Below are positions 1,720-33,033 of a stretch of 64,000 bases of DNA, piece by piece. The notes beneath the pieces are model-generated. The model saw only the letters and a program-made list of their open reading frames with translations, was not told the origin of the DNA and ran no database searches. A program made the position numbers and the translations under genes. This stretch comes from Candidatus Heimdallarchaeota archaeon (lineage in GTDB: Archaea; Asgardarchaeota; Heimdallarchaeia; Hodarchaeales; Hodarchaeaceae), in the NCBI GenBank assembly GCA_011364965.1, contig RDOB01000003.1:32001-96000 (forward strand), written 5' to 3'. Within the stretch, counting starts at the first letter, position 1, and each line of letters begins with the position of its first letter.

Positions 1720-3084
1720 ATGAGTGCACTCATTTCCGAACCTAAGGCATTAAAAACTCCCAGTGAGAAAATTCAAAGACCATTCAAACACTTTATGAAA
1801 ACTGAGCAGTTCAGTGGAATCTTATTAATAATTTGTACACTTCTAGCCTTAATCTTTGCAAATTCTCCCTTATCTGAAAATTATTTTCTTATTTGGGAAA
1901 CCAATTTCTCTATATCACTAGGTGGCCTATCATTAAGCAAACCTATTCACTTATGGATCAACGATGGATTAATGGCAATTTTTTTCTTTGTTGTAGGGTT
2001 AGAGATAAAGCGTGAATTAATGGTAGGAGAACTAAATACTCTTAAAAAAGCAACACTCCCTGTTTCAGCTGCAATCGGAGGAATGCTCTTTCCTGCTTTT
2101 ATATACTTGATTATTAATATCAATAATCCAGCAGGGATGCGTGGATGGGGGATTCCCATGGCTACTGATATAGCATTCGTAATAGGGGTGTTAGCAATCT
2201 TGGGTCCAAAAGTACCCCTTTCACTAAAAGTTTTTCTCACCAGTCTTGCTATTGTTGATGATATTGGAGCAGTGTTAGTCATCGCTTTATTCTATTCCAA
2301 CAGTATTCGAGTAGAGTTTTTAATAGCTGCAGTGGTAGTATTAGCTATTTTAATTATCATTAATCGCTTAGATATCAATAATCCAATCCTTTTTGGAATA
2401 TTAGGAATTTTAACATGGTATTGTATATTTAATAGCGGAGTACATGCAACTATAGCAGGAATCTTGGTCGCATTCACAATCCCTGCGCGGATTAAAGTTG
2501 ATACAAAGGAATTTATTGAAAGGAGTGAGCTACTTATATCACGCTTTAAAGCTGCAGGAGAAAGAGACAAAGAGATATTACTTAATAGACAACAGTTGGC
2601 TGCATTAAAAACACTAGAACTAGCTTGTGTACAAGTAGAAACTCCTTTACAGCGTTTTGAGAGACTTCTTCATTCATGGGTAGCTTATCTAATCATGCCC
2701 CTTTTTGTTTTCGCAAATGCAGGCATAAAAATTGAGAATATCCAACTCGATGTTTTTTTTCACCCAGTAACGCTTGGGGTTATCCTTGGTCTTGCGATTG
2801 GAAAACAACTAGGAATATTCACTTTAAGTTATTTATCTGTGCATTTTCGATTAACGGAATTACCTTCGGGTGTAACTTGGAGACATATCTATGGTGGAGC
2901 ATTGCTAGGCGGAATAGGGTTTACTATGTCACTATTCATCTCAAGTCTTGCACTTATTAATCCAATAAATATCATTGCAGCAAAAACTGGAATAATTCTA
3001 GGATCATTGATTTCTGGATCAATAGGGTACTATTTACTTGATAAGAATTTCAAGGATAAACAAAAAGCTTACTCTGCGCCATAA
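1720..3084 (+). CDS. nhaA: Na+/H+ antiporter NhaA
   Basis: HLWINDGLMAIFFFVVGLEIKRE, GWGIPMATDIAF, LAIVDD, SGVHATIAG and GIGFTMSLFI are NhaA signature motifs. Confidence 0.95.
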   Translation: MSALISEPKALKTPSEKIQRPFKHFMKTEQFSGILLIICTLLALIFANSPLSENYFLIWETNFSISLGGLSLSKPIHLWINDGLMAIFFFVVGLEIKRELMVGELNTLKKATLPVSAAIGGMLFPAFIYLIININNPAGMRGWGIPMATDIAFVIGVLAILGPKVPLSLKVFLTSLAIVDDIGAVLVIALFYSNSIRVEFLIAAVVVLAILIIINRLDINNPILFGILGILTWYCIFNSGVHATIAGILVAFTIPARIKVDTKEFIERSELLISRFKAAGERDKEILLNRQQLAALKTLELACVQVETPLQRFERLLHSWVAYLIMPLFVFANAGIKIENIQLDVFFHPVTLGVILGLAIGKQLGIFTLSYLSVHFRLTELPSGVTWRHIYGGALLGGIGFTMSLFISSLALINPINIIAAKTGIILGSLISGSIGYYLLDKNFKDKQKAYSAP

Positions 3085-3104
3085 AATCCCCTTTCGGATT
3101 TTCT

Positions 3105-3857
3105 TTACCAATAGAGATCTTTCGCAGAAACATACTCTTGCGTATAATTTTCTACTACTTCACCATCAGATAAACGGATAACACGATCTCCTAGGGGACA
3201 TATTGCTTCATTATGAGTCACTATTATGACAGTTCGGTTTTGTTCCTTACCCGTCATAGCTTCCATTATTTCAAGAATCTGACGACCTATTTTAAAGTCT
3301 AGATTCCCAGTGGGCTCATCAGCTAGAAGGATTTCGGGTTCTTTGGCTAATGCTCTTGCAATCGACACTCGTTGTTGCTCTCCACCAGATAACTGAGCAG
3401 GAAAATGATGAAGTCGATCTCCTAATCCTACTTTATCAAGATATTCGCTTGCTTTTTCTCGAATAATTTTGGACCTAAAAGACACAGAGCTCTCATCTCT
3501 AGGATTAGTTCTTACCCCCACAAGTTCTATTGCATACTCCACATTTTCTAATGCTGTTAGACGACTTATCAGGTTAAAAAATTGAAATACTACTCCAATC
3601 TTCTTTCTTCTATAAACTGTAAGCCATTTTGCTGATAAAGTAGATATAGGAATCTCACTAACTGTCACCTTCCCAGCTGTAGGAATATCGAGTCCCCCGA
3701 TCATATTCATAAGTGTTGTTTTCCCCGCTCCTGAAGGTCCATAAATAATTACTAGTTCTCCCTTCTCAATATCTAGACTTACTCCATTTAAGGCTTTTGT
3801 AATAGTTTCTCCAAGACGATATTCCTTTTGAACATCTCTTAGTGTTATAAGTGCCAT
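3105..3857 (-). CDS. ABC transporter ATP-binding protein, LolD/MacB-like
   Basis: [38 protein letters not shown]. Confidence 0.93.
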
Positions 3858-3870
3858 TCTTTTTAACCTC

Positions 3871-6423
3871 CTAGACTACTCGCTCCTTCGTTGCTTCTGC
3901 GAGATTTAGGTTAAGCGCTCTTCTAAGAGGGAAATACTCTGCAAATAACACACCTAATAAAGTAAGGAAGAAGCTAAAGAATCGAGTATTATCACTCATA
4001 AATATGATAATTCGGAAAAATTCCATATCTAAAACAACAGCCATAAAAAACCATAATAAAAACCATCCAAAGATTAAACCGAAAAAGGAACCAATTATTG
4101 TTATCACAGTATTTTCGATTGTAATATTTCGAATAATATGGCGATTGGGTGTTCCAATAGTGAGAAGTGTCGCTAATTCTCTTTCTTGTTCCTGAAGATT
4201 AATATATACCGTATTATATACCATAGCAACGGCAAGAAGAACAGCGAATAATGCAATGACATACATTACCCAATATAACGCCTCTAATAATCCTAATAAA
4301 TCGGAACTTTGTTCTGCTTTTGTATAAATATTTCTAATATTATAGTTATATCGTGTGTATATTTCAGACCTTACATATTCTAAATTTGTGTCTGTTGGAT
4401 CATCCAGTTGGATTAATATTGTGTTTGCAGGAGATCCTGGGAAATTGCTAACTTCTACTAATCGGTTCAACCCTATATAGGTAACTAATCCATTAAATTC
4501 GTCAACAAGACCTGAAACTCGAAAAGAGACATTAATCATTTCGAAATGCGCTCTCAGAGGCGCTGTGCTTACCAAACTTGTCAATCTTGGAATCTCAAGT
4601 TGGACTTCATCCCCTACTTTAACTCTTAATTTTTCTGCAATGGGTACAGTAAGAACAACACCTTCAGGGTCAAATTCACCTCTTGGTTTGGTATTAATAA
4701 ATCTAAAAGTATGACCCAAATATCCATCTGACTCATTGATGCCAATTAGCTGTGTTGTTTTACTCACCGATGATTTTGCTGAAGTTAATGTAGCTCCAGA
4801 TAAAAGATGATATGTAGAATTCGAGACACCATCGATATTATTCCTTATTGCTTGCGAAATAACTGAAGTATTAGTAGGCACTTCACTAAAATCAAGTTTC
4901 AAATCCCAATCTTCAACTATTGTATATTGTACTCTAAGGCCATAATCCATTGATTCCATCATGCCCCATGCCATACTGATAATAGAAACAGAGATTATAA
5001 CAGCGAAAACAGATGAAAATGTTCTACGCTTGCTTCTAAAAAAGTTCCTCAATGGAAGACGAAATCCTGTCACACGAAAACGAATATGGAATTTATTGAG
5101 AAATTTCTCTGCAAAAGAAATTCTTCCAGCTATTATATGACGTGATGGATCAAAACGTAAACTTTCCGCGGGTAAAGCTTGAATAGCACTTTTAACTGGA
5201 AAGTAACCCCCAATAAATCCCGTGATCAGACCAAGGAAAATACCAACAATTACTAATTCCCATTCAAAAGTAACTACGGCAGGAAATTGGATCGAAATAA
5301 CTTTAACATAAGTAGGACTGAAAACACCGGAAAGAGCAACACCAAATATGGTGCCAATCAATGTTCCCACAATCGAAACAACAATAGCAATTCCTAGGTA
5401 TTGTTTAATTATGGCGTTTCTACTATAACCAAGTGCTTGCGATACACCGATATCTTTTCTTTCAGCAACAACCATTCGCCCTAAAAGAATATATAATCCT
5501 CCACAAGCCATACCTAGAAGAAGTATGGGAAGCATTATTCCCATTTCTCTCGCTTCTTCGATATCTAATTTTAGCAAGTAATAGGATACTTGATCATCAA
5601 AATCAATAGGTTCACCCATTTTAAGTCCTTTTTCATCTTCAAGGAATTTTTTCAAGTCACTCGCAACTTGTTCCCGCTGTGACTTGGATAATATGTCGTT
5701 TAATTTTACAGATATTTCGTTTACCTTGCCTTCTACATTTAAAACGCCTTGAGCAGTTCTTAAAGGCATGAATATTACTCCGAACCGTCGGGGACTAGGT
5801 AAGATATCAGCATAGGATCCCATGTTCATTAAGTATTCAGGTGAAGCAATTGTACCAAGTATTTGAAAAGAAATATAATTATCTCCAACTTCAATAAACT
5901 CATTGGGTTCAAGTTTCCAATATTCAGCAAGATGACCTTCAACCATACAAACATTCCGGTATTCACTTGTTTGAGAGAACCCATTGCCACTTAAAAGTCT
6001 ATAACCATTTACAGAGGGCTGAGAACGAAATGTACCCGTCTTATCTGTCGTATTAAATGCAACAATCCTACCATTCTGTTGATTACCACGAACTCGAAAA
6101 GCTGTATCGTAAACTATTCTTACTTCGAAGTCCTCTACATCTGAACCAGCCTCTGTATTACTAAATTCATTCATTATCCTTGTTAGGTTGGAATAATCAA
6201 TCCAAGCATCGCTTCCTGACCCAGAGGGATTTGCAGTCTGTAAAGTAAAGCTAGCCATTGCATGCTTTTTGAAAGCTCCAGTGTATGTACTATCCAAATG
6301 GACAAATGCAGAGATCATTACATGTGCAGCCATTACGCCTGTAGCAATTACAAGAGCAATCATTAAGAATCTTAATTTATGAGCCATAATAGCTCTGTAT
6401 ATGTTTTTAGTTGTTTTTGCCAT
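3871..6423 (-). CDS. FtsX/MacB-family ABC permease with two tandem FtsX repeats
   Basis: 850 aa with two TM-ectodomain-3TM units, each with an ERxE/DIG/ELA motif ([15 protein letters not shown]; [14 protein letters not shown]); flanked by LolD-like ATPases. Confidence 0.9.
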
Positions 6424-6429
6424 TTACTT

Positions 6430-7155
6430 TCACCATGTAATTTCCATTGCATCTACTGGTTTTTGGGGAGTAATAGAGTCAATTGTTCCAGATCGAAGAG
6501 AAATAACTAAATCTGCGATTTCTGAGATCTTTCTATTATGCGTAACCAGTACTGTTAGTGTATCCGGCCTCGTACGTACTAATTTTTGGATAGTAGCTAA
6601 TACTAATCTCCCCTCTTTCACTGAGAGTTCCCCAGTTGGTTCATCACAGAGAAGGAGTTTGGGTTCTTTTGCTAACGCACGAGCTGCTGCTACTCGCTGT
6701 TGTTCCCCCCCGGATAATTGTGATGGAAACATATCTTTTTTTTCATATAATCCAACTGCTTTCAGATATTCCTCCGCTTTTAATCGAGTTTCATTTCGTG
6801 ATCGTTTTTGGGAAAGTTCCACAGCATATTCCACATTTTCTAATGCGGAATAGACGGGTAGGAGGTTAAAAAATTGGAAGATGAACCCCACATGTTTACG
6901 ACGAAATCTGGAAAGTTTTCTTTTGCCAAATCTGGTAATTTCTTTACCTGCTATGCATATTTTTCCCTCACATTTATCAATACCACCTAATACATTTAAT
7001 AAAGTGGTTTTACCAGACCCTGATGGGCCTAAACATACTACTAAGTTACCAGATTCTAGCTTCAGTGAGATATTTTTGAGTGCATAGATTTTAGAATGCC
7101 CCATTTGGTAAACTCGTTGTACATTTTCCAGTTCGACTAAACTCATGAGGTTCAC
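6430..7155 (-). CDS. ABC transporter ATP-binding protein, LolD/MacB-like (second paralog)
   Basis: [32 protein letters not shown]. Confidence 0.92.
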
Positions 7156-7173
7156 CCAATATTTCTTATGTTT

Positions 7174-7593
7174 TCACAATCCTGAGACTCCAGGATCCAC
7201 CTCTTTAACTACTTTGGTGCCAGCCTTCATGAAAAAGAATCTACGTAGATGCAATCGAAATTTGCGCCTTGTAGACTCATTTTCAGTTGTTACAACTTTC
7301 ATTCCAAAAAACATTTTTCCTACTGTCTGTCCATCGGTTAAAGCAGACATTAAGAAATGATAGATCGGAAAAAAGATAATGAACCACACGATAATTAAGT
7401 AGTCAAGAAATGGTTCAAGTTCGGCAGCATTTGGCAAAATAGCAGTCCATAAGATATCCCATTCAAGCAGTGCACCAAATTGTATTAAAATTGCTAAGAA
7501 AATTCCAACAATTATGTCGATAATCAATGCTGCAAATCGTAGAACTATTGATACTTCTTTGTATGAAATTCTTTCTTTTGACATAAAATACAT
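7174..7593 (-). CDS. RDD family membrane protein
   Basis: LRFAALIID and GQTVGKMFFGMKVV motifs. Confidence 0.85.
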   Translation of the reverse strand: MYFMSKERISYKEVSIVLRFAALIIDIIVGIFLAILIQFGALLEWDILWTAILPNAAELEPFLDYLIIVWFIIFFPIYHFLMSALTDGQTVGKMFFGMKVVTTENESTRRKFRLHLRRFFFMKAGTKVVKEVDPGVSGL

Positions 7594-7602
7594 ACCTCCA
7601 TT

Positions 7603-9648
7603 TTATATTATCTTTCTAGATAGTAATTTTCCTTTTTTAGTTCCAATTAAAGACAATATAGCCAATGAGATTACAACAAAAGGAAATTCAAATGAGGATA
7701 TCTGTCCTCCGCTTGGAACTACCTCTTTTGTTTTTGTTAATTCACCTGTATCTATCAAAACGAAATATGGAGCATATCCTTCATAAGTAGCCTCCCAAAC
7801 AAACTCTACTTCATTAAAATAGGTTTCCATATCTTTCCAACTAGCTTGGTCTTCACTCCAATAAATCCAGTGGTATACAGGAAAATTTGAAGTAGATCCA
7901 TTGATTGGGAGAGCTAAAGTCATAAAGATAATTGCATCTGGTTGTTGACAGCGAAATCTTACTGCATAAGATAAATTAATAACACTTTGGGGTAAGAACT
8001 CTTCGTGAACAATCGTGAAATTAAATGTTTGATCAATTTTTGAAGCTATAGTCAGATAAAACCATACTTCTCCCTGGTGATCTACAAAAGCAATTGAACG
8101 GGGAGTAAAAGCATTTAATTCCCAGTTCCAATTAAAAGAACTAGTATAGATTGAAAATAAATAAATGGATATGATAGTATTATTTGCTTCATCAATCAGA
8201 GTTAGATTTAATGAATAACTGCCATTTATTAATCCAAGATATTGTATTGTACGATTTATCCCCATATTAATAATATATTCTCTGGAATCGTTTGTTTCAA
8301 TTAATAGGGATTTTAACCTCGTTTTCTCGTCAACACTTATTTGGAAGATCACTTTTCCTTTTAAAACGCTATTATTTTGAAACCCATATATTTGGAAGGA
8401 AGGGGGAGTATTATCAACAATGAATACAAAAAGAGTGGAAACTTTTACTTGACTTACACTTTGTACAGAGACATTGAGTACATGAAGTCCTTCATTCATG
8501 GGAGCGGCAATGGTAGTGCCTTCTGGAACCGTTAAAGGTTCGTTACTATCCCAATTATATGTGAATGTACCATTTCCAGATTTGATATCTAATTCAACCC
8601 CTTTATTGCCTTGTATTTTGCTATTATTCTCAAGTTTAATTAATTCAATTGCTGGATAAGTATCATCAGTTATGAAAGTTAAATGAATTGTATTGGTAAT
8701 CGAAAGAGTATCAGTTGCAAAAATCATTAGATGGTGATCTGTTTCGCCAACAGGGAAAGTAGTAGTTATTAAGGAAGTAGAAGTTATGTTCTCTCCTTCA
8801 TCCCAGCTATATTTAACTTCGTTAACTTTGAATGGAGAATCCAACTCTATTTGAATAGTAGTTCCATTTGGACGTATTGTATTGTTACCCGGAGTCAAAC
8901 TAATCATACTAGGACCGATATAATCTTGAGGAAGGGAGGCAAATTCAGCAAGAGTTAGATTATACCAGAATGGGGTTACGTATGTAAAGTTTTGAGACAA
9001 AAATAACCCATCGGTTGAATATCTTGATATAATATCCCCAATATCAGGAACTGTAACGCTAATCTTCCATGCATCGAAACTTCCAATATTTTCTAGTTCA
9101 AAATTCTCATAGGAAACATAAAAGGTTGACTCCTCAATAATAAAAGAATATCCATCGTAGAAATCTGAAGGATTGATCCAAAAATCGAAAGTATTATATC
9201 TCATTCCCCACCACATGAAATACGGAGAAGCATGATAAAAATGTGAGACAGATGATCGATTCACAGAGGGATAAAAAGGAGATTCGTATTCAGGCGCAAC
9301 AGGAGGCCCTGCATCATTAGGTATTGAATAATCACACCTTACATCCCAATGAGTCTTGTTAAGAGATAAAATCGTTGTATTGAATATATTTCCATTCTCC
9401 CATTTCAGATTATATGGATTCCATATGTATTCTTGAACTGTTAAATTTGTATGAGGAAGGAATACAGTATTACTTTCAACTTCTCCGATAGAGTATGTTA
9501 ACCTGGATGAATCATATTCACCATCTATTGCTGAATTATAATTTGATTCTTCAGTGATAGAATATTGTAAATTAGTAAATGCTATTGATGCGATAAGTAT
9601 TCCTATAATAAGGTTGAATTTTATCTCCGATTGTCGAATTAGACCCAT
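7603..9648 (-). CDS. Secreted Ig-like/beta-rich surface glycoprotein with C-terminal sorting-type anchor
   Basis: N-terminal signal/TM, repeated 'DxTxP...YxWD' Ig-like modules, many NxS/T sites, C-terminal ISSFEF-hydrophobic-KKGK. Confidence 0.7.
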   Translation of the reverse strand: MGLIRQSEIKFNLIIGILIASIAFTNLQYSITEESNYNSAIDGEYDSSRLTYSIGEVESNTVFLPHTNLTVQEYIWNPYNLKWENGNIFNTTILSLNKTHWDVRCDYSIPNDAGPPVAPEYESPFYPSVNRSSVSHFYHASPYFMWWGMRYNTFDFWINPSDFYDGYSFIIEESTFYVSYENFELENIGSFDAWKISVTVPDIGDIISRYSTDGLFLSQNFTYVTPFWYNLTLAEFASLPQDYIGPSMISLTPGNNTIRPNGTTIQIELDSPFKVNEVKYSWDEGENITSTSLITTTFPVGETDHHLMIFATDTLSITNTIHLTFITDDTYPAIELIKLENNSKIQGNKGVELDIKSGNGTFTYNWDSNEPLTVPEGTTIAAPMNEGLHVLNVSVQSVSQVKVSTLFVFIVDNTPPSFQIYGFQNNSVLKGKVIFQISVDEKTRLKSLLIETNDSREYIINMGINRTIQYLGLINGSYSLNLTLIDEANNTIISIYLFSIYTSSFNWNWELNAFTPRSIAFVDHQGEVWFYLTIASKIDQTFNFTIVHEEFLPQSVINLSYAVRFRCQQPDAIIFMTLALPINGSTSNFPVYHWIYWSEDQASWKDMETYFNEVEFVWEATYEGYAPYFVLIDTGELTKTKEVVPSGGQISSFEFPFVVISLAILSLIGTKKGKLLSRKII

Positions 9649-9970: not shown

Positions 9971-10720
9971 ATGGTAGACCTACTAATCCGATTTAGTGCG
10001 ATATTTTCGTTGATTGCAATGGGTCTTGTTTCAGCATATGGGTCAGTTCATTTTTTGAGATTATGGCAGAAATTTAAAGAAGAAGCGCTTTTCCATCTGG
10101 GAATCTTAGGTTTTGGTTTAATTTTTTATCTTTTATTCGTCGCTGGATTAATATATTTAAATCCAAACAAAGATACTATCTTAATTCTTATAAAGAGGAC
10201 GATTGGAATTATTTATTCGTTTCTATGTCTTGAGTTGAGTCTTTTCTATCTAACAGCCTTTGTTAATCGAAGAAGTATGTTCGAAAAATACATTCCATTT
10301 ATTGTTGGTATTACATCGGGAATGGCTATAGCTTTGGTGGGAATGCAAGAAACTAATCCATGGTTTGAGATTATTCTGTTTGTAGAATATTTTTTACCGT
10401 TTATATTTTTAGTGGGACTTGTTATACGGATATCACGTGGAGCAGTGGAAATACTGGGAGATAAAAGAATTTCTCCACAGGATAGACGGTTCATTAAAGC
10501 ATTGCTCATTACAGCTATAGTAATGTTTATTTCAGCCATTGGAGATCTTGTTTTCTTCGGAATTTTTATATTTATTACCATCAATATCTGGGATTTTGTC
10601 ATTACCTTTAGCGCGGTGATAGGACCATTCGTAGCAATTCTTTTCCTTAGCTTAGTAAGAAGGGTATTTATAGATATAGAAGAAGCTGATGTTGTGCACC
10701 TGATGAATTTAATAAGTTAA
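9971..10720 (+). CDS. Hypothetical ~7-TM membrane protein (receptor-like)
   Basis: About seven hydrophobic helices, no catalytic motif; closely follows the RHH gene. Confidence 0.7.
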   Translation: MVDLLIRFSAIFSLIAMGLVSAYGSVHFLRLWQKFKEEALFHLGILGFGLIFYLLFVAGLIYLNPNKDTILILIKRTIGIIYSFLCLELSLFYLTAFVNRRSMFEKYIPFIVGITSGMAIALVGMQETNPWFEIILFVEYFLPFIFLVGLVIRISRGAVEILGDKRISPQDRRFIKALLITAIVMFISAIGDLVFFGIFIFITINIWDFVITFSAVIGPFVAILFLSLVRRVFIDIEEADVVHLMNLIS

Positions 10721-11947
10721 ATTATTAATAAAATCTTCAAGATATTGCATTCTTTCTTCAATCGGAGGATGGGATAAGAAAAAATATTTTTCCCACCAGG
10801 GGGGACAAAGATCAGCAAGATTTTGATCGGCCATTTTTATAAAAAGACTTTTAATGACATTAAAATCTGAAACAATGGTAGAGGCAAATTTATCTGTCGC
10901 TTTTTCCAGTTTACGTGAGTACCATAAACTAGGTACATTAAAAATAAACGAATTCAACAACCAGAAACTTAAACCAAGAATAGGTATGTTACTAACATCA
11001 CTAATATCGGAGGAATATCCAAAAAAGCTCACGAGATATGGAAACATTAAATGAGAGAGAAAAAACAAAAGAAATGTAGTTAACAATGCGAGTAGAATAT
11101 TTTTTCTTAAATCATGGTGCCTGTGATGCCCAAATTCATGAGCAAGGATCCATTTGATTTCATCTTTCGTATACTGAGAAAGCATGGTATCAGCAATTAT
11201 GATACGTCTTGTTGGGCCTATCCCCATTAACCCAGCATTTCCAGTAGTTGCTACCTCCCCTAAATGCCAATTAAAGGCATTCGTTACTTTTACACCTGTC
11301 TGGTCTGCCATCTGAAGCAGCTCAGTGACAAATTCAGGGTGAGTTTTCTCCAAAGGATCAAATTTGTAGAATAAAGGAAGAATGAAAATTGGTACTAATA
11401 CTGAAAAAAGGAGCGATAAAAGAAACAAGGCCATTGTAGCCCAGATCCACCAACTATCGGGATAGTATCTAAGTAAGAAATAGAAGCCTTGAAAAATGGG
11501 AAGGCCAATGAGAAAGGTTAAAAATTCACCTTTGAAATATCTTCTAATCCATTGAATGTTGGTTAATTTTGATAAACCATATTTTCTTGAGAGATTCGCA
11601 TGAATATAGAAGGATAAGGGTAATTCCCAAAAACTAATAAGAATAAAACCTGTTATAAAAAACACACCAATTATTAGTATAGGTTCATTGGTAATATATT
11701 CAACGATTAGATCTCGATACCAGATTGTTAATCGGGAGAGTAAAAACACTAATGATAGAAGTAATGAAACGATCATTAGGATAAAATTATATTTTTTAGA
11801 AGTTCGAGTATACTCGATAGCTAATTTTCTTCGTTCAACGTTGAAATCAAAAACAAGATGAGGAATATCGTTAGCATCCTTAGAATTGGGGGCTAATGGC
11901 TGAGATAAGACTGTTTCACTATTATCTTCGATCACTAAAAACACCAA
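10709..11947 (-). CDS. M48 family zinc metalloprotease, Ste24/CAAX prenyl protease 1-like
   Basis: LAHEFGH zinc motif, NAGLMG..RRIIIADT, SRKLEKATD, SHPP; N-terminal TM domain. Confidence 0.92.
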   Translation of the reverse strand: MVFLVIEDNSETVLSQPLAPNSKDANDIPHLVFDFNVERRKLAIEYTRTSKKYNFILMIVSLLLSLVFLLSRLTIWYRDLIVEYITNEPILIIGVFFITGFILISFWELPLSFYIHANLSRKYGLSKLTNIQWIRRYFKGEFLTFLIGLPIFQGFYFLLRYYPDSWWIWATMALFLLSLLFSVLVPIFILPLFYKFDPLEKTHPEFVTELLQMADQTGVKVTNAFNWHLGEVATTGNAGLMGIGPTRRIIIADTMLSQYTKDEIKWILAHEFGHHRHHDLRKNILLALLTTFLLFFLSHLMFPYLVSFFGYSSDISDVSNIPILGLSFWLLNSFIFNVPSLWYSRKLEKATDKFASTIVSDFNVIKSLFIKMADQNLADLCPPWWEKYFFLSHPPIEERMQYLEDFINNLTY

Positions 11948-12083: not shown

Positions 12084-12794
12084 ATGTCACTTCAACGTTT
12101 ATTTACCAAATTCAGTAAATCACTTGAGGATAAAGACTCAAATGAGGATTATAAAAAAGAAGATATTACTTTACATGTTATGAGGGTATTAGCGAATCCT
12201 ATAGTACAACTCTTAAATCCGTACGGATTTATTACTCCTAATCGTATAACATGGTTTGGATTTTTTTGTGTAATCTTTGGAGCTTTAGTCTTAATTATTT
12301 CAGGAGACAATTTAATACTCTTAGGGATTGTTGCGGTTTCTTACTGGCTTTCATCATATTTTGACACCGTGGATGGAATGTTAGCACGTAAACGAGGAAT
12401 TGCTAGCAAAAATGGCGCCTGGTTGGATAGCATATTAGAAGAAGGAAAAGGATATTTCTTTTTCTTTGCCCTAGCTCTTCATATTCAAGACTCAAATGGA
12501 TTATTCACATTAAATTTCGGAGCAACTCCTATTATAACTCTTAATGTATGGATGGTTTTATTTATTATGTATGGAGCAGAGAGATGGCTTGCTTTAATGG
12601 CACTATGGGGAAATATGATATTAGAAGAGCCACGTGTGGTCTCTATGGGACATATATATATTGTTGGTATCTTTTTACTCCTAAATATCTTAGATTGGTT
12701 CCTTGTTATCTATACTATTTTAGTGATAATCGGTGTGGTTTACACACTTGTCGAAAAAACTTTCTTTTTTACCCCATTCAAGAAAAGTGAGTAG
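12084..12794 (+). CDS. CDP-alcohol phosphatidyltransferase family protein
   Basis: ITPNRIT and DTVDGMLARKRGIASKNGAWLD (DxxDGxxAR...GxxxD). Confidence 0.9.
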   Translation: MSLQRLFTKFSKSLEDKDSNEDYKKEDITLHVMRVLANPIVQLLNPYGFITPNRITWFGFFCVIFGALVLIISGDNLILLGIVAVSYWLSSYFDTVDGMLARKRGIASKNGAWLDSILEEGKGYFFFFALALHIQDSNGLFTLNFGATPIITLNVWMVLFIMYGAERWLALMALWGNMILEEPRVVSMGHIYIVGIFLLLNILDWFLVIYTILVIIGVVYTLVEKTFFFTPFKKSE

Positions 12795-12813
12795 AGATCG
12801 CCCAATTGAGGAA

Positions 12814-13599
12814 TCACATTGTAAAAATGGACACCTTGGAGTATGCCGGGGCTTCAACTTCCTCACTTGGATCTAAACATAATTCCTGCAACTCAATGAA
12901 CGTCTCAGATATAGCTTTTTTATAGAGTGATTCAGGAATCCCTCGCTGGTGCGAAAATACTCGTTCCCGTAAAAACCACACAAGATCAGTGATAGACAGT
13001 CTCCTTATACTTAAATGCTCAAATTCAGCATTCTTCCATCCCTGATTCTTTAAAAAGATCTTTACACCTTTTCTTATCAAATCCCATTTAAAATAGTATT
13101 TATAACCCATGTCTTCCAATTTCTGGTAAAAAATTCGAAATGGTAAAGTTTCTTGATAATCTACGAAAATCTCGCAATTAATATAACTTCCTTCAGCTTG
13201 TAAATATTCTAAAATCTTATTTAATAGGGTGTAAGGATTAGAAACCAGATGTAAGAGATGAGAGGTTATTATGGTATTAAATTTTATGGAAAAAGGAAGA
13301 AAAGAACCATCAGCGACTATTAGACTCAACGATTTATCGTTTAAAGCCTTTTTACAACAGTATTGAATCATTTTCTCTGAAATATCGATACCTATAAACG
13401 AAGAAGAGGTTATTTTTTGAAGAGGAATTGCTAAACGTCCCGTACCAACCCCTATCTCTAGGATTCGAGCCCTAGAATCCAGAGAGAGCTGACTTTCTAT
13501 TGTTTCTATAGTGCTATACAATAAATCGACAGGAATAGCACGAGTGTAGTCATAGAAGGACACAGCCCAGTCAAATGAATTTATATTTTCGTTCTTCAT
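12814..13599 (-). CDS. Class I SAM-dependent methyltransferase
   Basis: ILEIGVGTGR, GIDISEKM, ADGSFLPF. Confidence 0.9.
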   Translation of the reverse strand: MKNENINSFDWAVSFYDYTRAIPVDLLYSTIETIESQLSLDSRARILEIGVGTGRLAIPLQKITSSSFIGIDISEKMIQYCCKKALNDKSLSLIVADGSFLPFSIKFNTIITSHLLHLVSNPYTLLNKILEYLQAEGSYINCEIFVDYQETLPFRIFYQKLEDMGYKYYFKWDLIRKGVKIFLKNQGWKNAEFEHLSIRRLSITDLVWFLRERVFSHQRGIPESLYKKAISETFIELQELCLDPSEEVEAPAYSKVSIFTM

Positions 13600-13757
13600 A
13601 ATTTTATTTCATATAGCTCATTTTATATCCCCTTAAGATGTTTTGTGCATACTTAGCTTTGTGTGCCTCAATTGAAAACATTATTAGAAGCATTTTAGAT
13701 TTTCAAGAATTGCTAGTAGAAGCAAATTATTGAGTCTACACGGAAGTTTCGATATCG

Positions 13758-15173
13758 ATGCAACTTTATAATTCACTCACACGAGTAAAAGAAGAACTCA
13801 TCCCAATTGAGGATAAGAAAATCAGGTTTTATTCTTGCGGGCAAACAGTTTATGAAGATGCTCATATAGGAAATGCAAGAACATATTCTTACTGGGATGT
13901 TTTAGTTAGGTATCTTCGTTGGAGAGGTTACGATGTTTTTTGGGTTCAAAACTTTACAGATGTGGGTCATTTGACTGATGATGCCGATGCAGGTGAAGAT
14001 AAAATAATCAAAACTGCGTTAGCGAAAGATATTCAACCAATGGTTCTTGTGGAGAAACAGATTCGCAAATTCTATGAAGATATGGACAAATTGAATATAC
14101 AAAGAGCTGATCTCTACCCTCGAGCTACAGGAGAAATCCCAGAAATGATTGAATTTGTAAGGGATCTCTTAACAAAAGGATATGCTTATGAGGTTAATGG
14201 GTCAATTTACTTCGATATAACTAAATTTGAAAAATATGGTGAACTTAGTCCATCCGATTATTCTGAAGAAACAGCTGGAGTCCGTATAGCGGTTAATCCT
14301 GAGAAAAGAAACCCACGAGACTTCGCTCTATGGATAAAAGCGCCTGAGACTCATTTAATGAAATGGCCCTCCCCCTGGGGAATGGGTTATCCGGGTTGGC
14401 ATCTCGAATGCTCAGTAATGAGTCAGAAATATCTAGGAACGACACTAGATATTCACGCAGGCGGGATTGATCATTTACATCTTCACCACCCAAACGAAAT
14501 TGCGCAAAGTGAATCCCGAACAGGGGAAAAATTCGTTAATTATTGGATTCACGCGGCTTTTCTAACCGTGGATGGAGAAAGAATGGGAAAATCTAAAGGA
14601 AATTATATTTTAATTCGGGATCTCTATAAGGAATTTGATCCCACGCTTATTCGGTTATTCTTAGTGAATTCACACTACCGTAAAAGCGTAGATTTCAATA
14701 AAGATGCTATAAATCAGACTCAAATACTCTTAGATCGCTTTCGAACGACAGTTGCAGCATTAAATCAAGCTCCTGGAGGGAAAAAAAAGGATCTTCTTAA
14801 AAGTATAAATCAAGTGACATCTGATTTTATCACTGCGATGGATGATGACCTCAATACAGTAGGAGCGATACAAGCCATTATGCAATTTATCAAAACGGTT
14901 AATAATTCATTAGATAATACAAAAGAACTTCTTTTAGAAGCAAAAAATACTATAATCACACTTTTAGGGATATTAGGAGTAAATTTGGATATGAGTGAAA
15001 CCCAAGGCCCTGTAGCTCTCCCAGCTCTTGTTAACCTGATAGTAAAATTACGCACTGATCTTCGAAACGTAAAACAATTTCAATTAGCAGATGAAATTCG
15101 CGCAAAACTTCTAAACTTGGGTATCCAACTAGAAGATAAACCCGAAGGTACAATCTGGAAATTTAAAAGCTAA
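13758..15173 (+). CDS. cysS: Cysteine--tRNA ligase
   Basis: CGQTVY..HIGNAR, PGWHLECS, DIHAGGIDH..HHPNE, RMGKSKGN (KMSKS variant). Confidence 0.97.
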   Translation: MQLYNSLTRVKEELIPIEDKKIRFYSCGQTVYEDAHIGNARTYSYWDVLVRYLRWRGYDVFWVQNFTDVGHLTDDADAGEDKIIKTALAKDIQPMVLVEKQIRKFYEDMDKLNIQRADLYPRATGEIPEMIEFVRDLLTKGYAYEVNGSIYFDITKFEKYGELSPSDYSEETAGVRIAVNPEKRNPRDFALWIKAPETHLMKWPSPWGMGYPGWHLECSVMSQKYLGTTLDIHAGGIDHLHLHHPNEIAQSESRTGEKFVNYWIHAAFLTVDGERMGKSKGNYILIRDLYKEFDPTLIRLFLVNSHYRKSVDFNKDAINQTQILLDRFRTTVAALNQAPGGKKKDLLKSINQVTSDFITAMDDDLNTVGAIQAIMQFIKTVNNSLDNTKELLLEAKNTIITLLGILGVNLDMSETQGPVALPALVNLIVKLRTDLRNVKQFQLADEIRAKLLNLGIQLEDKPEGTIWKFKS

Positions 15174-15394
15174 TAATGTATATAAAATTCAAAACTAAGA
15201 AGAGAGATATTTCTTCCTTATTTTGATTATAATCCAAGGACTGCATTTTTTTTAATTTTTATCAGTTAAACTAGGAAGGAATTCACATAATTGCACTAGA
15301 ATTCTATATTTTCTCCTCATCAAACGAAAAGTTTTTCTAAATTGTTCAAATTACCATCAATTATTATAGACTAATCTAACTTGATTTCCAGATA

Positions 15395-16108
15395 ATGAGG
15401 TATCAATCTGTGACAAATCAGAAATTAACTGTATTAACTTTGATCGTAATGATCTTTATAATTGTTTGCAATATATCAACTGCCCAAGCTGATTACGTGG
15501 TTATCGATTGGGGAGATGTAGTAAATATCAAAAGCACTCTTAATTATCGAAAACCAGGTGAACAAACCCCAGCTTTTTATAGTGAAACTCACATTGAATT
15601 ATTTCTAGGTGATATTCCATCCCCATACTTAAACCTTACATATGATAGACTCTTAACCATGTTCCAAGCTTTTCGAGAACATTTAATTGGGATGAGAGAA
15701 GGACAAACGCGAAAATTTACAGTTAGTTATGTAGAAGCGGGGATTACTAACCAATCTGATGTTTTATATAATGCTGAACTTATCTATACAGTTTTATTTA
15801 TCGAAATGCTCTATGACGCTCACTATGATCCGAAAGTTGATATCACATTTACTCATCCGTTGATTCTATTCCCATTATTAGGTTTGTTGTTTGGAACTGT
15901 GTATCTAGTTGCAAATGGATACCATAAACCTCTATTCGAGAAAATCAGGCATGTTGGTGTAGCAAAATGTATAAATTGTCAAAAACCCACTAATTTAATG
16001 TGTGCTAATCCAAGATGTAGAAAACTGATATGTAGTACCTGTTTTTCAAAACATGGATGTCCCATTTGTCACGGAACCAAGCTAATAGAACGTACAAAAA
16101 GGTTCTAA
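15395..16108 (+). CDS. Signal peptide + FKBP-like domain + TM + C-terminal Cys8 RING-like zinc finger
   Basis: FREHLIGMREGQTRKFTV resembles the FKBP/SlyD core. A TM helix follows, then CINC-x7-C-x4-C-x4-CSTC-x5-CPIC. Confidence 0.65.
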   Translation: MRYQSVTNQKLTVLTLIVMIFIIVCNISTAQADYVVIDWGDVVNIKSTLNYRKPGEQTPAFYSETHIELFLGDIPSPYLNLTYDRLLTMFQAFREHLIGMREGQTRKFTVSYVEAGITNQSDVLYNAELIYTVLFIEMLYDAHYDPKVDITFTHPLILFPLLGLLFGTVYLVANGYHKPLFEKIRHVGVAKCINCQKPTNLMCANPRCRKLICSTCFSKHGCPICHGTKLIERTKRF

Positions 16109-16405: not shown

Positions 16406-18532
16406 ATGAAAAAGAAAAACTTGCTTTTTGCTCTGGTTTTCGTAGCGTTCTTCCTTCCATTATATAGCAGTGCTGTACAATCAGTACCTGCTGCTGTTGA
16501 ACCTCTTATTTCAGTGCATGCAATTGCCCCAACAAATAACCCACAACGAGCAATGTATGCCCAGTTAATGGAACAAGAGCTACCAAAAATCGGAATTGAA
16601 GTAGAATTGGATCTTATCAGCTGGCCTGCACTTCTCACCCGCGCTGCAACTAGTGAGGTTGGTGTTTATTCAGAAGGTGGATATGATATTGCACACTTTG
16701 GAATGTCATTAGGATCACCAGCAGGACATCCAGGTGATTCTATGCTTGGAGTATACCATAGTGGCGCAGTTCCGCCAAATGGATTTAACTGTATGTATTG
16801 GTCAGTAAATCCAGGACACAACAACCTTCGTGCTGCTGAATCAGATGCTTTGATTGAAGCTATCAACAGTGAGTTGAATCAGACCTTATCTCGAGAAATG
16901 CTGTTAGAATGGCAGGAGGTCTACTACGACGTTCTTCCAAACATTATGGTTTATAATCTATTAGAAGTTCATGCTGTTTCAAAAGGTATTAGTGGTTATG
17001 ATCCTGTCAATCCCGCGTTATATTCAATTGAAGACATTCGAATGGATCCTGCTACTTATACTGGTACTATGGGAACAGTAGTGTTAGCTTCCTCTGCTCC
17101 TCCAACTAATTTCCTTCAAATGATCATAAATGATGTATATTCACAATATTGCGCTAATCCAGCAATGGATGCCCTAGTAGGTTTAACTCCTTCTAGAACC
17201 GTTGTTCTACCAACAGGCACAACTTATGAAGATTGGATGATGGCTAATTATGGCGTAGATCTTCCACTCCAAAACTATCCTCGTATTGCCCAAGACCTTG
17301 GATTTTACAGTGAGGATGGTCTTAACTTCACTGTTTCCCTAAGAGATGACGCTTATTGGCACGATGGTGAACAAGTAGACGCTTGGGATGTAGCGTTTAC
17401 CTATCAAGCAGTTCTTACACCTGATGTAGGTTCAGATGAATATAGCAACTTAAGACTTGCCCTTGGAGATGATGATAAAGAAAATCTTCACGGTAATTAT
17501 TCTTTCCAGGTTAAAGATCTTGATGATAATGGCCACTTTGAAACCATTAGCATCATCTTTGATATTACATATGCACCATTCCTTACTGACTACTTCGGTT
17601 ATGCACTTCATCCAGAACATATTCTTGGAGATCCTGTAGATCATGGATTCCTAGTTGATGGCACTTTTGATCCTAATACAAAATGGCAAGTTGCCCCAGC
17701 TGAATGGAGTTCCCACTCATATAATACAGCTGATCCAAGTGATCCTGGTGGTCTAGAAGGACCTATTGGTTGCGGTTCATTAGTTTTCTACGACTTTGAT
17801 CAAACCAGCAGAGTCTTAGAACTTCGCAAATTCGAGAACATTAAATGGGATCACGGTACTGGCACTTGGTTAGAAGGAGAGACAGCTTCTGGAGGTTTGT
17901 CTCACTACCTAGTTGCGGATGGTGAATTAGATGACATGGCAGATGTTGCTAAAGTTATCCCAGCTAGCTTAGATGCAGCCCTAGCTGAAATGAAGGCCGG
18001 AGATGTAAATATACTTGACCATCAATTCAGTATGGGAAATATCTTTGACGAGCTCCAAGCAGAACCAACTATTGTCACTGCTCAAACCCCAGCAACTGGT
18101 TGGCAATGCATTTATCCAAACCCAAAGCAACCTGATCTTGCTAAGAAAGGTGTCCGTCACGCAATTTCTCATGTAGTACCACGTGATGATATTGTAAACT
18201 ATCTTTTTGATGGACTCGCATTCCATGGCTACACACCGGTACCTATCACTGGCTGGGGAGCTATGTCCACAACCGATTGGTTAGCAATGAAGAAAAACAT
18301 TGAAGCATCAAACGGAACAAAACTCCTTACGGGTGAAACTACATTCTATGACTCCTACGATGTTGAACTGGCATTAGACTGGCTCGAGACCGAAGATTAT
18401 GATGTTGGCCCATGGAGAGACGGTGGCGCTGGATTAACAGAACCAGGTGGTGCTATCCCCGGTTATGAATTCAGTGTTGCGCTTCTCGCAATATTGGGAT
18501 CAATTTTCATTATTAAGAAACGAAGAAGATAA
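16406..18532 (+). CDS. Peptide ABC transporter substrate-binding protein (SBP family 5, DppA/OppA-like), circularly permuted, PGF-CTERM-like anchor
   Basis: SEDGLNFTVSLRDDAYWHDGEQVDAWDVAFTY, VRHAISHVVPRDDIV, ELPKIGIEVEL; signal peptide; C-terminal IPGYEF-TM-KKRRR. Confidence 0.88.
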   Translation: MKKKNLLFALVFVAFFLPLYSSAVQSVPAAVEPLISVHAIAPTNNPQRAMYAQLMEQELPKIGIEVELDLISWPALLTRAATSEVGVYSEGGYDIAHFGMSLGSPAGHPGDSMLGVYHSGAVPPNGFNCMYWSVNPGHNNLRAAESDALIEAINSELNQTLSREMLLEWQEVYYDVLPNIMVYNLLEVHAVSKGISGYDPVNPALYSIEDIRMDPATYTGTMGTVVLASSAPPTNFLQMIINDVYSQYCANPAMDALVGLTPSRTVVLPTGTTYEDWMMANYGVDLPLQNYPRIAQDLGFYSEDGLNFTVSLRDDAYWHDGEQVDAWDVAFTYQAVLTPDVGSDEYSNLRLALGDDDKENLHGNYSFQVKDLDDNGHFETISIIFDITYAPFLTDYFGYALHPEHILGDPVDHGFLVDGTFDPNTKWQVAPAEWSSHSYNTADPSDPGGLEGPIGCGSLVFYDFDQTSRVLELRKFENIKWDHGTGTWLEGETASGGLSHYLVADGELDDMADVAKVIPASLDAALAEMKAGDVNILDHQFSMGNIFDELQAEPTIVTAQTPATGWQCIYPNPKQPDLAKKGVRHAISHVVPRDDIVNYLFDGLAFHGYTPVPITGWGAMSTTDWLAMKKNIEASNGTKLLTGETTFYDSYDVELALDWLETEDYDVGPWRDGGAGLTEPGGAIPGYEFSVALLAILGSIFIIKKRRR

Positions 18533-18916: not shown

Positions 18917-19795
18917 ATGAATAAAAAGATTCTATTTGGAGTCGGCATTCTGACTCTTATCATTCTTTTACAAAGTATGCCTGCCTCCAGTGCTGTCACA
19001 GTCGAGTCTGTTAAATGGCACCCAGCAGTCAAAGAAGATGCCGTTTATTCTTGGTCGATTGACACAATCAACGCTTCTGGTGAAACCTCATGGGATTGGG
19101 GTTGGGCCAATAATGTCACTCTGAAACAGGGTGAAAAAATTACTCTAGAGTGGACCGCGGACCCCGATGAGGAAACTGCAATAGCAACCCTTGGACCAAT
19201 TATCTACACAGGCATTGTAACAAAAGTTGGATCTCATACTATGAACTTCACCGCTGGTGAGACTACTTTCAATTTCCTTCAGGTACCTGTTTATATTCGA
19301 AATGATCCGACTGGTTTAAATGCTCTTGAAGCAGGTTTAAACTCTCTTGAACGATTATGGATTAATAGCTTTGGTTTACCAACTGGAGCATCATCCGCTG
19401 ATCGTCGCTGGAGCATTGGGATGCATGGCGCAACTCTTCTAAACACAGGGGAAAATGGAACTAAAGGGGAAACCATTATAGGCGAAATTAGCGGTGGTAC
19501 ACCCGCACAACATTATGTGTTCGACATCGAATATGATTCAGTCACTGGATTTGTAACATCATTAAAATACCCCTCAGCAGGTAATCCTGATGATCCAACA
19601 ATTCCAATTGCTAATAGCACATTTGGTATTGTCTCGGGTCTTGATGAACTTGTCATCACATTTGATGGTGAAATGAAAGATGTTTATGCGGAAGCAGAGT
19701 GGGGTAAGGCCAAAGCTGCTCCAGGTTTTGAAGCTCCTATAGCAATTATTACACTAGTTATGTTTGGAGCACTTATTCGAAAACGCAAGAAATAA
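18917..19795 (+). CDS. Secreted surface protein with PGF-CTERM-like anchor
   Basis: Signal peptide; C-terminal APGFE-hydrophobic-RKRKK; GGAGG upstream. Confidence 0.8.
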   Translation: MNKKILFGVGILTLIILLQSMPASSAVTVESVKWHPAVKEDAVYSWSIDTINASGETSWDWGWANNVTLKQGEKITLEWTADPDEETAIATLGPIIYTGIVTKVGSHTMNFTAGETTFNFLQVPVYIRNDPTGLNALEAGLNSLERLWINSFGLPTGASSADRRWSIGMHGATLLNTGENGTKGETIIGEISGGTPAQHYVFDIEYDSVTGFVTSLKYPSAGNPDDPTIPIANSTFGIVSGLDELVITFDGEMKDVYAEAEWGKAKAAPGFEAPIAIITLVMFGALIRKRKK

Positions 19796-31878: not shown

Positions 31879-33033
31879 ATGGTTAATTATGAGGTTTTAA
31901 GAGAGACTGGTGCTGGAATTTTCAAAGTATTAGCAAAAGCCAAAGCTCTAGAAAGAGAAGGAAAGAAAATTCTACATTTCGAAATTGGCCAACCAGATCA
32001 AAACACACCTGAGCATATTAAGCAAGCAGCGAAGGATGCGCTTGATGCAAATTTCACAGGATATGTACCCTCAAGTGGTATACAAGAACTGAAGGAAGTT
32101 GTACAAGAAGAAGTCCAAAAAACACGGGGATTTACACCTTCTCTCAATCAGATCCTAATTCTACCAGGAGCTAATTCTGGGGTTTATTATACATTAAGAG
32201 CAGTAGTAGAAAATGAAGCGCACGAAATTATCTATCCCAATCCAGGATTCCCAACATATGGATCAGTGGTAAATTATCTAAATGCTGGTGACAAAGCAGT
32301 ACGTATTAAGGAAGAAAATGAATTTCGCCTAAATCCATTTGACATAGAGGAAAACCTTTCTCCAAATACAAAAGCAATCATCCTAAATAGCCCCCAAAAT
32401 CCCACTGGATCAGTTATGAAGAAAGTAGAAATTCAAAAGATCGCTGAACTCGCAGAAAGACATGATTTTTATATTTTATCAGATGAAATTTACTCCAAAA
32501 TGACATATGAAGAAGAATTTTTCTCCTGTTCTGTTCAAGATGAATGTAAAGAAAGAACTATCCTCCTAGATGGATTTTCCAAATCTTATTCCATGACAGG
32601 ATGGCGACTTGGGTGGTTAATAGCCCCAGAGGAAATAGTAGATCGAATGGATCTTCTTATATCCATAGGGGTATCCTGTACATCCTCATTTGTGCAGAAA
32701 GCTGGTGTGGCTGCATTAACAGGGCCACAAGACTCCATTCGAGAAAATATGATAGAATATCGAAAACGCAGAGACATGATTGTTAAGGGTTTGAATGAAG
32801 TGAATGGGTTTTCTTGTTTAACCCCGCAAGGAGCTTTTTATGTTTTCCCGAATATAACTAAGACAGGAATGAGCTCACAAGAATGTGCGGATTACCTTTT
32901 GAACCATGGGATAGCTTGTTTACCTGGAACAATATTTGGGAAAAACGGTGAAGGTTATCTACGATTCTCTTATGCAACATCAATTGATATAATAAAAGAA
33001 GGTATTGAGCAAATTAAGGCAATTTTCAATTAA
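31879..33033 (+). CDS. PLP-dependent aminotransferase class I/II (aspartate aminotransferase-like)
   Basis: GQPD, NSPQNPTG, SDEIY, GFSKSYSMTGWRLG, YLRFSYA. Start moved to ATG 31879 to remove the overlap with the upstream gene. Confidence 0.93.
   Translation: MVNYEVLRETGAGIFKVLAKAKALEREGKKILHFEIGQPDQNTPEHIKQAAKDALDANFTGYVPSSGIQELKEVVQEEVQKTRGFTPSLNQILILPGANSGVYYTLRAVVENEAHEIIYPNPGFPTYGSVVNYLNAGDKAVRIKEENEFRLNPFDIEENLSPNTKAIILNSPQNPTGSVMKKVEIQKIAELAERHDFYILSDEIYSKMTYEEEFFSCSVQDECKERTILLDGFSKSYSMTGWRLGWLIAPEEIVDRMDLLISIGVSCTSSFVQKAGVAALTGPQDSIRENMIEYRKRRDMIVKGLNEVNGFSCLTPQGAFYVFPNITKTGMSSQECADYLLNHGIACLPGTIFGKNGEGYLRFSYATSIDIIKEGIEQIKAIFN

Follow-up and report, generated by a model that had tools for sequence, protein, structure and literature searches.

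Human FKBP11 (FKBP19; 9n9j/9ygy) combines a signal peptide, an exoplasmic or lumenal FKBP domain, one transmembrane (TM) helix and a short basic cytosolic part. It has been described as a ribosome-binding adaptor at the Sec61 translocon; its C-terminal helix, which is positively charged, adjoins uL22 and H24 of the 28S rRNA, and its nominal catalytic site is probably unused for isomerisation (PMC12804085). A gene product with the same layout is encoded by Candidatus Heimdallarchaeota archaeon, on contig RDOB01000003.1, within the window considered here (the whole stretch of DNA that was analysed, 64,000 nucleotides in length and covering positions 32,001 to 96,000 of the contig). Whereas the cytosolic part of FKBP11 is a plain basic helix, that of the archaeal protein is a zinc finger. 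The reading favoured in this study, to which about an even chance is given, is that this FKBP-finger protein assists folding at the cell surface while tethered in the membrane, and docks through a B-box-like tail.

Other described systems resemble the archaeal protein in part. FkpA, the lipoprotein PrsA and the membrane-anchored thioredoxins ResA, TlpA and CcmG are likewise folding catalysts attached to the cytoplasmic membrane or exported through it, but these bacterial peptidyl-prolyl isomerase (PPIase) chaperones and thioredoxins have N-terminal or lipid anchors, without the cytoplasmic zinc finger that the archaeal protein carries. SlyD and the archaeal FKBP17/26 (3cgm, 1ix5, 3prb), which provide the best matches to its FKBP core, are cytosolic and have an insert-in-flap (IF) domain, whereas the flap of the archaeal protein is a 16-residue loop with an N-glycosylation sequon and no IF. 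It shares with RNF43/ZNRF3 and with the PA-TM-RING ligases (RNF13, RNF128, plant RMR) a type I topology in which the ectodomain serves ligand binding and the cytoplasmic C-terminus forms a zinc finger, predicted to be cross-brace in the archaeal protein; the PA-TM-RING ligases, however, join a PA ectodomain to a RING-H2 finger, in contrast to the FKBP ectodomain and all-Cys, non-RING-spaced finger found here. Finally, PML B-box1 (2mvw/6imq) and the ZFYVE19/ANCHR B-box (2d8v) share with the archaeal finger the spacing C-x2-C-x6/7-C-x2/4-C-x4-C-x2-C-x4-6-C-x2-C and, as far as can be judged, a binuclear cross-brace treble-clef fold. Unlike B-boxes, which usually end in His, the archaeal finger has only Cys ligands, and its setting is the tail of a membrane protein, with a conserved basic C-terminal strand, as opposed to the TRIM-type RING-B-box-coiled-coil (RBCC) arrangement of B-box proteins. 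The B-box is known mainly from eukaryotes, in the TRIM, PML and plant BBX proteins; the Hodarchaeales, to which the host belongs, are among the archaea placed nearest to the eukaryotes.

The membrane topology of the protein was predicted from hydropathy and charge. Two hydrophobic segments, with centres at residues 14-28 and 157-166, are found by a 19-residue hydropathy scan. The first belongs to a signal peptide in which a basic N-terminus (net charge +2) and a hydrophobic core (residues 12-27) are followed by AQA and then D, the junction being a likely cleavage site. Residues 33-153, which separate the two segments, have a net charge of -8, a pI of 4.6 and no Cys, and the last 61 residues, which contain all eight Cys of the finger, have a net charge of +11 and a pI of 9.8. 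Because of this charge distribution, the positive-inside rule puts the FKBP part outside and the finger in the cytoplasm, making the gene product a predicted type I membrane protein with its FKBP domain facing outward and its finger inward. An exported ectodomain also fits the conservation of two N-x-S/T sequons, N80 (N80-T82, nt 15632-15640) and N119 (N119-S121, nt 15749-15757), which are present in 7/19 and 10/19 sequences, respectively, of the orthogroup and many relatives; one of them lies within the FKBP flap loop, adjoining the position of FKBP12 Tyr82. A first-pass annotation of this DNA had proposed a signal peptide, an FKBP-fold ectodomain, one TM helix and a cytoplasmic eight-Cys finger, a layout that hydropathy, charge and modelling with AlphaFold2 (AF2) bear out. 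The motifs it named (GDVVNI, FREHLIGMREGQTRKFTV and LIYTVLF) are all found in the translation, its Cys spacing of C-x2-C-x7-C-x4-C-x4-C-x2-C-x5-C-x2-C ending in CPIC is exact, and the charge distribution agrees with its placement of the Cys domain inside the cell, with no sign of the opposite topology.

The assignment of the ectodomain to the FKBPs is based on a family profile and an AF2 model, not on the single sequence, for which comparison of the whole protein with Pfam and NCBIfam gives sub-threshold matches only. When the 19-sequence family profile is compared with the PDB, it matches the Methanococcus FKBP 1ix5 (E 1.2e-7) and FKBP25 (E 1.5e-5), and relatives exceed the cut-off of the Pfam FKBP_C model (for example, L036 with 40.0, L041 with 30.3 and L038 with 26.1 bits). 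AF2 supplied with a 26-sequence alignment returns a mean predicted local distance difference test (pLDDT) score of 89.5, rising to 93-98 across the sheet (residues 41-140); from the single sequence the ectodomain is poor (mean pLDDT 49) and confidence is limited to the finger. Comparison of the model with 48,161 chains by VIA-align gives matches to SlyD (Z 11.5, rmsd 1.9, 85 aligned), SlpA (Z 11.2) and FKBP2/FKBP13 (Z 10.9). The translocon-bound FKBP11 (9ygy_A) is matched at Z 10.1 with 133 residues aligned, spanning residues 31-189 of the model and including the TM helix; against E. coli FkpA the ectodomain scores Z 8.0. PPIase domains of FKBP type, or FKBP-like ones (FKBPs, SlyD/SlpA, trigger factor, Mip/FkpA), account for 43 of the top 50 rows, and Foldseek returns FKBPs at a probability of 1.00, the first match being FKBP11 (9n9j_A). 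As modelled, the ectodomain has the FKBP fold, a five-stranded antiparallel sheet wrapping a short helix. A SlyD-like IF chaperone insert is ruled out by the short flap loop of the AF2 model.

Catalysis by this domain is doubtful. The active site was mapped by carrying a profile alignment to FKBP25 onto the family alignment, with the relevant FKBP12 residues taken to be Y26, F36, D37, V55, I56, W59, Y82 and F99. Their respective equivalents are S47, F61, Y62, M89, F90, F93, I117 and Y131, such that the aromatic and hydrophobic pocket is retained and the equivalents of the polar residues Y26, D37 and Y82 are all substituted; it is this replacement that casts doubt on isomerisation. The ectodomain of this orthologue would rather be a peptide binder or holdase, with isomerase activity that is weak or nil. 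Tyr is retained at the Y26 and Y82 positions in some more distant members of the family.

The ligands of the cytoplasmic finger are C192-x2-C195-x7-C203-x4-C208-x4-C213-x2-C216-x5-C222-x2-C225, terminating in CPIC. It is modelled confidently whether or not an alignment is supplied, with pLDDT values of 95-97 and 86-91 respectively. In an alignment of 31 finger sequences, C1, C3, C4, C5, C7 and C8 are invariant, and the variable ligands are C2 (Gly in one sequence) and C6 (His, Asp or Ser in four). Under cross-brace pairing C2 and C6 both belong to site 1, while under sequential pairing both sites would be damaged; because the varying ligands share a site, the alignment lends indirect support to a cross-brace arrangement. 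A wide structure search with the single-sequence AF2 model of the finger, with 50 rows shown, matched the Prp19 U-box at Z 4.6 (rmsd 2.6, 45 aligned; further Prp19 rows at 4.3 and 4.1), the TRAF6 RING at 4.2, the Nbr1 ZZ at 4.1, the 3lrq U-box and the BIRC7 RING at 4.0 and the Ada2 ZZ at 3.9. Among the rows listed, all those aligning the finger alone are cross-brace domains (U-box, RING or ZZ, Z 3.9-4.6). These Z values are modest, as expected at approximately 45 residues, and so point to the fold class of the modelled finger and not to its family. B-box chains are absent from the 50 listed matches, which is no argument against a B-box-like fold, as the scores of chains this small may lie lower than the list extends.

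The sequence affinity of the finger is with B-boxes. At E up to 1, the ANCHR-like_BBOX model (PF22586) matches 28 of the 31 family members, with a best E of 6.6e-6; zf-B_box (PF00643) matches 15 of them (best E 0.0012), and the counts for RING models are five for Prok-RING_4, three for zf-RING_5, three for zf-C3HC4_3 and three for zf-RING_2 (best E 0.38). All B-box matches are below the Pfam gathering scores, ANCHR-like_BBOX reaching 16.7 bits on this finger under a cut-off of 27; Prok-RING_4 on this protein is at 11.3 bits, also under a cut-off of 27. A finger profile compared with the PDB matches PML B-box1 (E 3.6e-4), the ZFYVE19/ANCHR B-box (1.3e-3) and PML again (7.5e-3), followed by a piggyBac finger, a HIT finger and the BIRC7 RING (0.05). 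B-boxes have the spacing C-x2-C-x7-12-C-x2-C-x4-C-x2-C/H-x3-6-H/C-x2-8-H/C, and RING fingers have a first loop of at least about nine residues, C3-x1-3-H/C4 and C4-x2-3-C5. In the archaeal family, loop 1 is mostly 6-7 residues long, two members having 11-12, with C3-x2/4-C4 and C4-x4-C5, and towards the C-terminus of the finger C5-x2-C6, C6-x4-6-C7 (x5 here) and C7-x2-C8; on this count the spacing satisfies the B-box consensus and falls outside the RING ranges. The finger is termed B-box-like, rather than a member of the B-box family, because the matches, though consistent, stay below curated cut-offs.

The first-pass annotation had proposed a cross-brace RING. The cross-brace part of this proposal is plausible, given that the modelled fold matches cross-brace domains including the U-box and RING, and membership of the RING family is supported neither by models nor by spacing. 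Of two alternatives raised at the same time, a B-box-like finger turns out to be the better supported, by the 28/31 matches to ANCHR-like_BBOX and by PML B-box1 at E 3.6e-4, and a metal-storage finger is disfavoured by the strict conservation of the eight ligands, their fixed spacing and a confident cross-brace-like fold, all of which argue for a structural zinc finger. The best-kept positions other than the ligands are F/Y at C6+1, Gly at C7-1 and the tail following C8, where the family pattern is x-S/G-N/R-K/T, two hydrophobic residues, P/R and one further hydrophobic residue. Every finger segment in the family has a positive net charge, between +3 and +13.

Comparison with other genomes indicates that the gene is genuine and conserved. 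Close orthologues are 68-77% identical, and the family is small: searching 1.84 billion representative proteins exhaustively yields only 23 at E up to 1e-3. When 400 genomes of the phylum were searched, full-length matches were restricted to the host's own class, where they are found in families f1 (21/21), f3 (1/1), f4 (31/31) and f6 (12/12), the f4 copies often forming tandem arrays of two or three; outside this class the FKBP part alone matches. The finger profile alone is matched in 18/21 f1, 1/1 f3, 17/18 f4 and 5/5 f6 genomes, and those f2, f5 and f7 genomes that were searched have no match to it. The architecture appears to be confined to part of the Heimdallarchaeia, and was not found described in the literature searched on Asgard FKBPs, B-boxes, transmembrane zinc fingers and Prok-RING. 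A membrane FKBP with a B-box-like finger consists of known parts in a lineage-restricted combination.

The tail of the protein is not tied to one ectodomain. The host genome encodes three paralogues, namely the gene under study (C11:47395-48108 in genome coordinates), a 234-aa protein with the same finger (C9:32562-33266) and a 239-aa protein on the reverse strand (C12:3040-3759, within locus L048, G000:C12:1-7000). This last has a signal peptide, an FKBP domain, a Ser/Thr-rich stalk and a TM helix, with the finger replaced by a cytoplasmic charged helix ending in RRRR, a form also seen in representatives P0019, P0024 and P0025. In f4 genomes, the same TM helix and finger follow an AhpC-TSA/Redoxin/thioredoxin ectodomain (L043, 270 aa, AhpC-TSA at 63 bits; L045, 314 aa, Redoxin at 77 bits), and these thioredoxin-type tails match down to the ending ...GCPNCGS-K/R-KFIRL. 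All matches to the finger profile fall either in open frames of approximately 210-290 aa or 267-316 aa, two size classes that agree with the FKBP-type and thioredoxin-type proteins examined one by one, or in free-standing fingers of about 54-67 aa. From these comparisons, the TM helix and finger together look to be a portable module. Because two unrelated extracytoplasmic folding catalysts share this one basic module, a docking or clustering tag is a better description of it than a signalling or ligase element specific to one domain.

Free-standing finger open reading frames (ORFs) are located at G000:C11:256187-256300 (+) in the host genome, and at G058:C66:13446-13583 and G060:C11:32787-32924 in related ones. 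With profile E values of 2.8e-6 to 3e-14, they represent soluble copies of the tail finger with neither TM helix nor ectodomain.

In the folding-helper reading, the signal peptide would take the FKBP-fold domain across the cytoplasmic membrane to its outer face, and the single TM helix would link this domain to a juxtamembrane helix, which is basic, and to a very basic B-box-like finger of cross-brace type with two zinc ions. The outer domain would most likely be a holdase or weak foldase that binds stretches of newly exported proteins which are unfolded or contain proline, and the TM helix and finger would most likely dock or cluster surface folding catalysts at a partner on the cytoplasmic face. 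By analogy with FKBP11, the preferred candidate for this partner is the translating ribosome at SecYEG, in which case the juxtamembrane helix (residues 177-187) and the finger would hold the FKBP domain at translating ribosome-SecYEG sites, for that domain to receive exported chains as they emerge; anionic lipid binding and self-assembly are alternative roles for the same tail. What we infer here is that the protein has chaperone activity, that its tail docks and what it docks to. In its most specific form, the proposal would make the TM helix and B-box-like finger an Asgard-specific tag placing FKBP and thioredoxin catalysts at the ribosome-bound Sec translocon, an archaeal counterpart, and possibly a forerunner, of the lumenal folding factors associated with the eukaryotic translocon, such as FKBP11, and a prokaryotic relative of the B-box; stated so fully, it is rather unlikely. 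If true, the wiring of exported folding catalysts across the membrane to a zinc finger would imply that folding at the outer face is organised in the manner of the translocon accessory factors of the endoplasmic reticulum (ER), with the finger tail as a concrete candidate for how this is achieved and with a B-box-like finger placed in an archaeal membrane protein.

A number of results weigh against the folding-helper reading. The protein taken singly is below the 21.1-bit cut-off of Pfam FKBP_C (PF00254), at 12.8 bits and E 0.16, and its ectodomain alone matches no PDB sequence at E up to 10. The loss of the polar residues (S47, Y62, I117) leaves even a foldase role uncertain. SlyD and FKBP2 score as well as or above FKBP11, the parallel with the latter being one of architecture and charge, and the gene neighbourhood offers no functional clue past the close orthologues. 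Furthermore, two features of the finger would suit a ubiquitin ligase: its fold matches include active E3 domains (the Prp19 U-box and the TRAF6 and BIRC7 RINGs), and a RING-like CPxC knuckle is present at C7-C8, with Pro at C7+1 in 19/31 members (P223 here).

A different explanation for the receptor-like layout and single-pass TM helix is that the protein is a transmembrane sensor or regulator, comparable to membrane-tethered anti-sigma factors or transcription regulators, whose FKBP ectodomain senses unfolded envelope proteins or a peptide and whose finger binds nucleic acid or sequesters a regulator. The degenerate active site, favouring binding over catalysis, would agree with this, as would the strongly basic character of the finger across the family (+3 to +13) and of the whole cytoplasmic part here (+11), and the occurrence of 54-67 aa free-standing fingers in related genomes and in that of the host. 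However, no regulator or target gene is found among the conserved neighbours, profile searches give no match to a DNA-binding family, and the tandem arrays of two to three copies, together with the presence of the tail on a thioredoxin-like enzyme, fit a shared anchoring module better. A sensor role is consequently judged fairly unlikely.

The function originally suggested for this protein was that of a RING E3 ligase in a proto-ERAD system (ERAD being ER-associated degradation). As a transmembrane RING-like E3, its finger would recruit charged E2 and ubiquitinate membrane proteins, or misfolded exported proteins sensed by the FKBP domain, in a proto-ERAD or PA-TM-RING-like system. Were the finger an E3, this would be a prokaryotic transmembrane ubiquitin ligase, with a bearing on the origin of ERAD. 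The cellular context is favourable: the finger is cytoplasmic and the host encodes E1, E2 and ubiquitin, so that the absence of such a system, which would have counted against the suggestion, is not seen. The genome holds at least four UQ_con E2 loci above the cut-off, ubiquitins, five ThiF (E1-type) loci and RING-H2 genes of the ordinary kind. Besides the features of the finger already mentioned, there are weak matches to Prok-RING_4 and to a SCO0854-type RING, and MID1 B-box1 reportedly has weak E3 activity in vitro, which can be counted on the same side.

Neither RING models, spacing, the residue at C1+2, gene location nor the shared tail supports a ligase, however. Loop 1 of seven residues, C3-x2/4-C4 and C4-x4-C5 are outside the RING ranges and within those of the B-box; RING families in Pfam match at most 5/31 members, and weakly, as against 28/31 for the B-box model; and a genome-wide search with zf-RING_2 finds nine loci at E up to 1, this gene not among them. 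The canonical E2 contact at C1+2 is N194 here, an Asn that the four closest orthologues all retain, and V, I or M occupies this position in just 11/31 members. From the position of the best-kept residues, it follows that the conserved surface of the finger is not the classical E2 groove. The loci for ubiquitin, E1 and E2 are on C16, C1 and C13, whereas this gene is on C11 and near none of them, and an identical tail type is attached to a thioredoxin-like ectodomain. Taken together, a ligase function is quite unlikely.

The ubiquitin loci have features of their own. The cluster on C16 (L050, G000:C16:71000-88000) extends over positions 1911-8929 of that locus and encodes an E2 of 156 aa, a small RING-H2 protein of 120 aa (5270-5629), a ubiquitin of 77 aa (7670-7900) and an E1 of 331 aa (7937-8929); it also holds an Arf-like small GTPase and a KaiC-like ATPase, and a gene for a Yip1-domain membrane protein adjoins it. 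A second E2-ubiquitin-E1 cluster (L049, G000:C13:35000-44000) is adjoined by a gene for a 582-aa protein (6081-7826, +), with a weak match to E3_UFM1_ligase/PCI-like winged-helix regions and a C-terminal Cys-rich finger (C1_2-like). This protein is a candidate non-RING or atypical E3.

That the finger is purely a self-assembly module, clustering FKBP and thioredoxin ectodomains in membrane patches with no heterologous partner on the model of PML B-box1 and the TRIM B-boxes, accords with its best sequence matches (PML B-box1 at E 3.6e-4 and other B-boxes), with B-boxes being known oligomerisation elements and with a conserved C-terminal strand and hydrophobic pair that could be an interface, but is quite unlikely given that strong like-charge repulsion disfavours self-association in the absence of a polyanionic partner.

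The coordinates of the gene and its parts are collected in the table. An alternative GTG start at codon 6 (nt 15410) would give a protein of 232 aa, which is the form of the stored protein P0002 and agrees with the length of the orthologues, at 230-232 aa. The real start may therefore be GTG 15410 rather than ATG 15395, an uncertainty of five residues. The TATA-like sequence upstream may be an archaeal promoter from which an mRNA with a short leader, or with none, is transcribed.

Table. Features of the FKBP-finger gene, in positions of the window
Feature	Position (nt)	Strand	Basis
Whole gene, 237 aa	15395..16108	+	ORF call and translation
TATA-like box ttattata	15361..15368	+	about 27 nt 5' of ATG, seen directly in sequence
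Signal peptide or N-terminal anchor, residues 1-32	15395..15490	+	hydropathy, charge; AF2 helix 6-25
Extracytoplasmic FKBP-fold domain, residues 33-150	15491..15844	+	family profile, AF2, VIA-align, Foldseek
Single TM helix, residues 154-176	15854..15922	+	hydropathy peak 157-166; AF2 helix 155-173
Basic juxtamembrane helix, residues 177-191, net charge +3	15923..15967	+	AF2 helix 177-187
8-Cys binuclear finger, residues 192-225, net charge +5	15968..16069	+	AF2, fold and profile matches
Basic C-terminal tail, residues 226-237, conserved	16070..16105	+	column counts; AF2 strand 230-232

On its contig the gene is flanked by a Cys-tRNA ligase gene and, approximately 300 bp downstream, by an SBP_bac_5 gene. 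The latter adjacency does not extend beyond orthologues sharing 68% identity or more, and a functional link or operon with the SBP_bac_5 gene was rejected, as the adjacency is not seen in distant members, whose loci were compared with only about 1.5 kb of flank. None of the neighbouring genes is regarded as belonging to a system with this one. The SBP_bac_5 protein (708 aa; 16406-18532, +) and a 292-aa protein matching no known family (18917-19795, +) both end in a PGF/PEF-CTERM-like manner, with a Pro-Gly motif followed by a hydrophobic helix and then by an end rich in Arg/Lys, which suggests that they are surface proteins processed by an archaeosortase. Upstream, genes for a CDP-alcohol phosphatidyltransferase and the Cys-tRNA ligase (12084-15173) are inserted between a methyltransferase gene and the FKBP-finger gene when compared with loci L011 and L013. 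Syntenic with the methyltransferase gene in relatives is the gene at 10709-11947 (-), which encodes a Ste24-like CAAX prenyl protease (Peptidase_M48_N and Peptidase_M48), a CAAX protease architecture of eukaryotic type in an Asgard genome.

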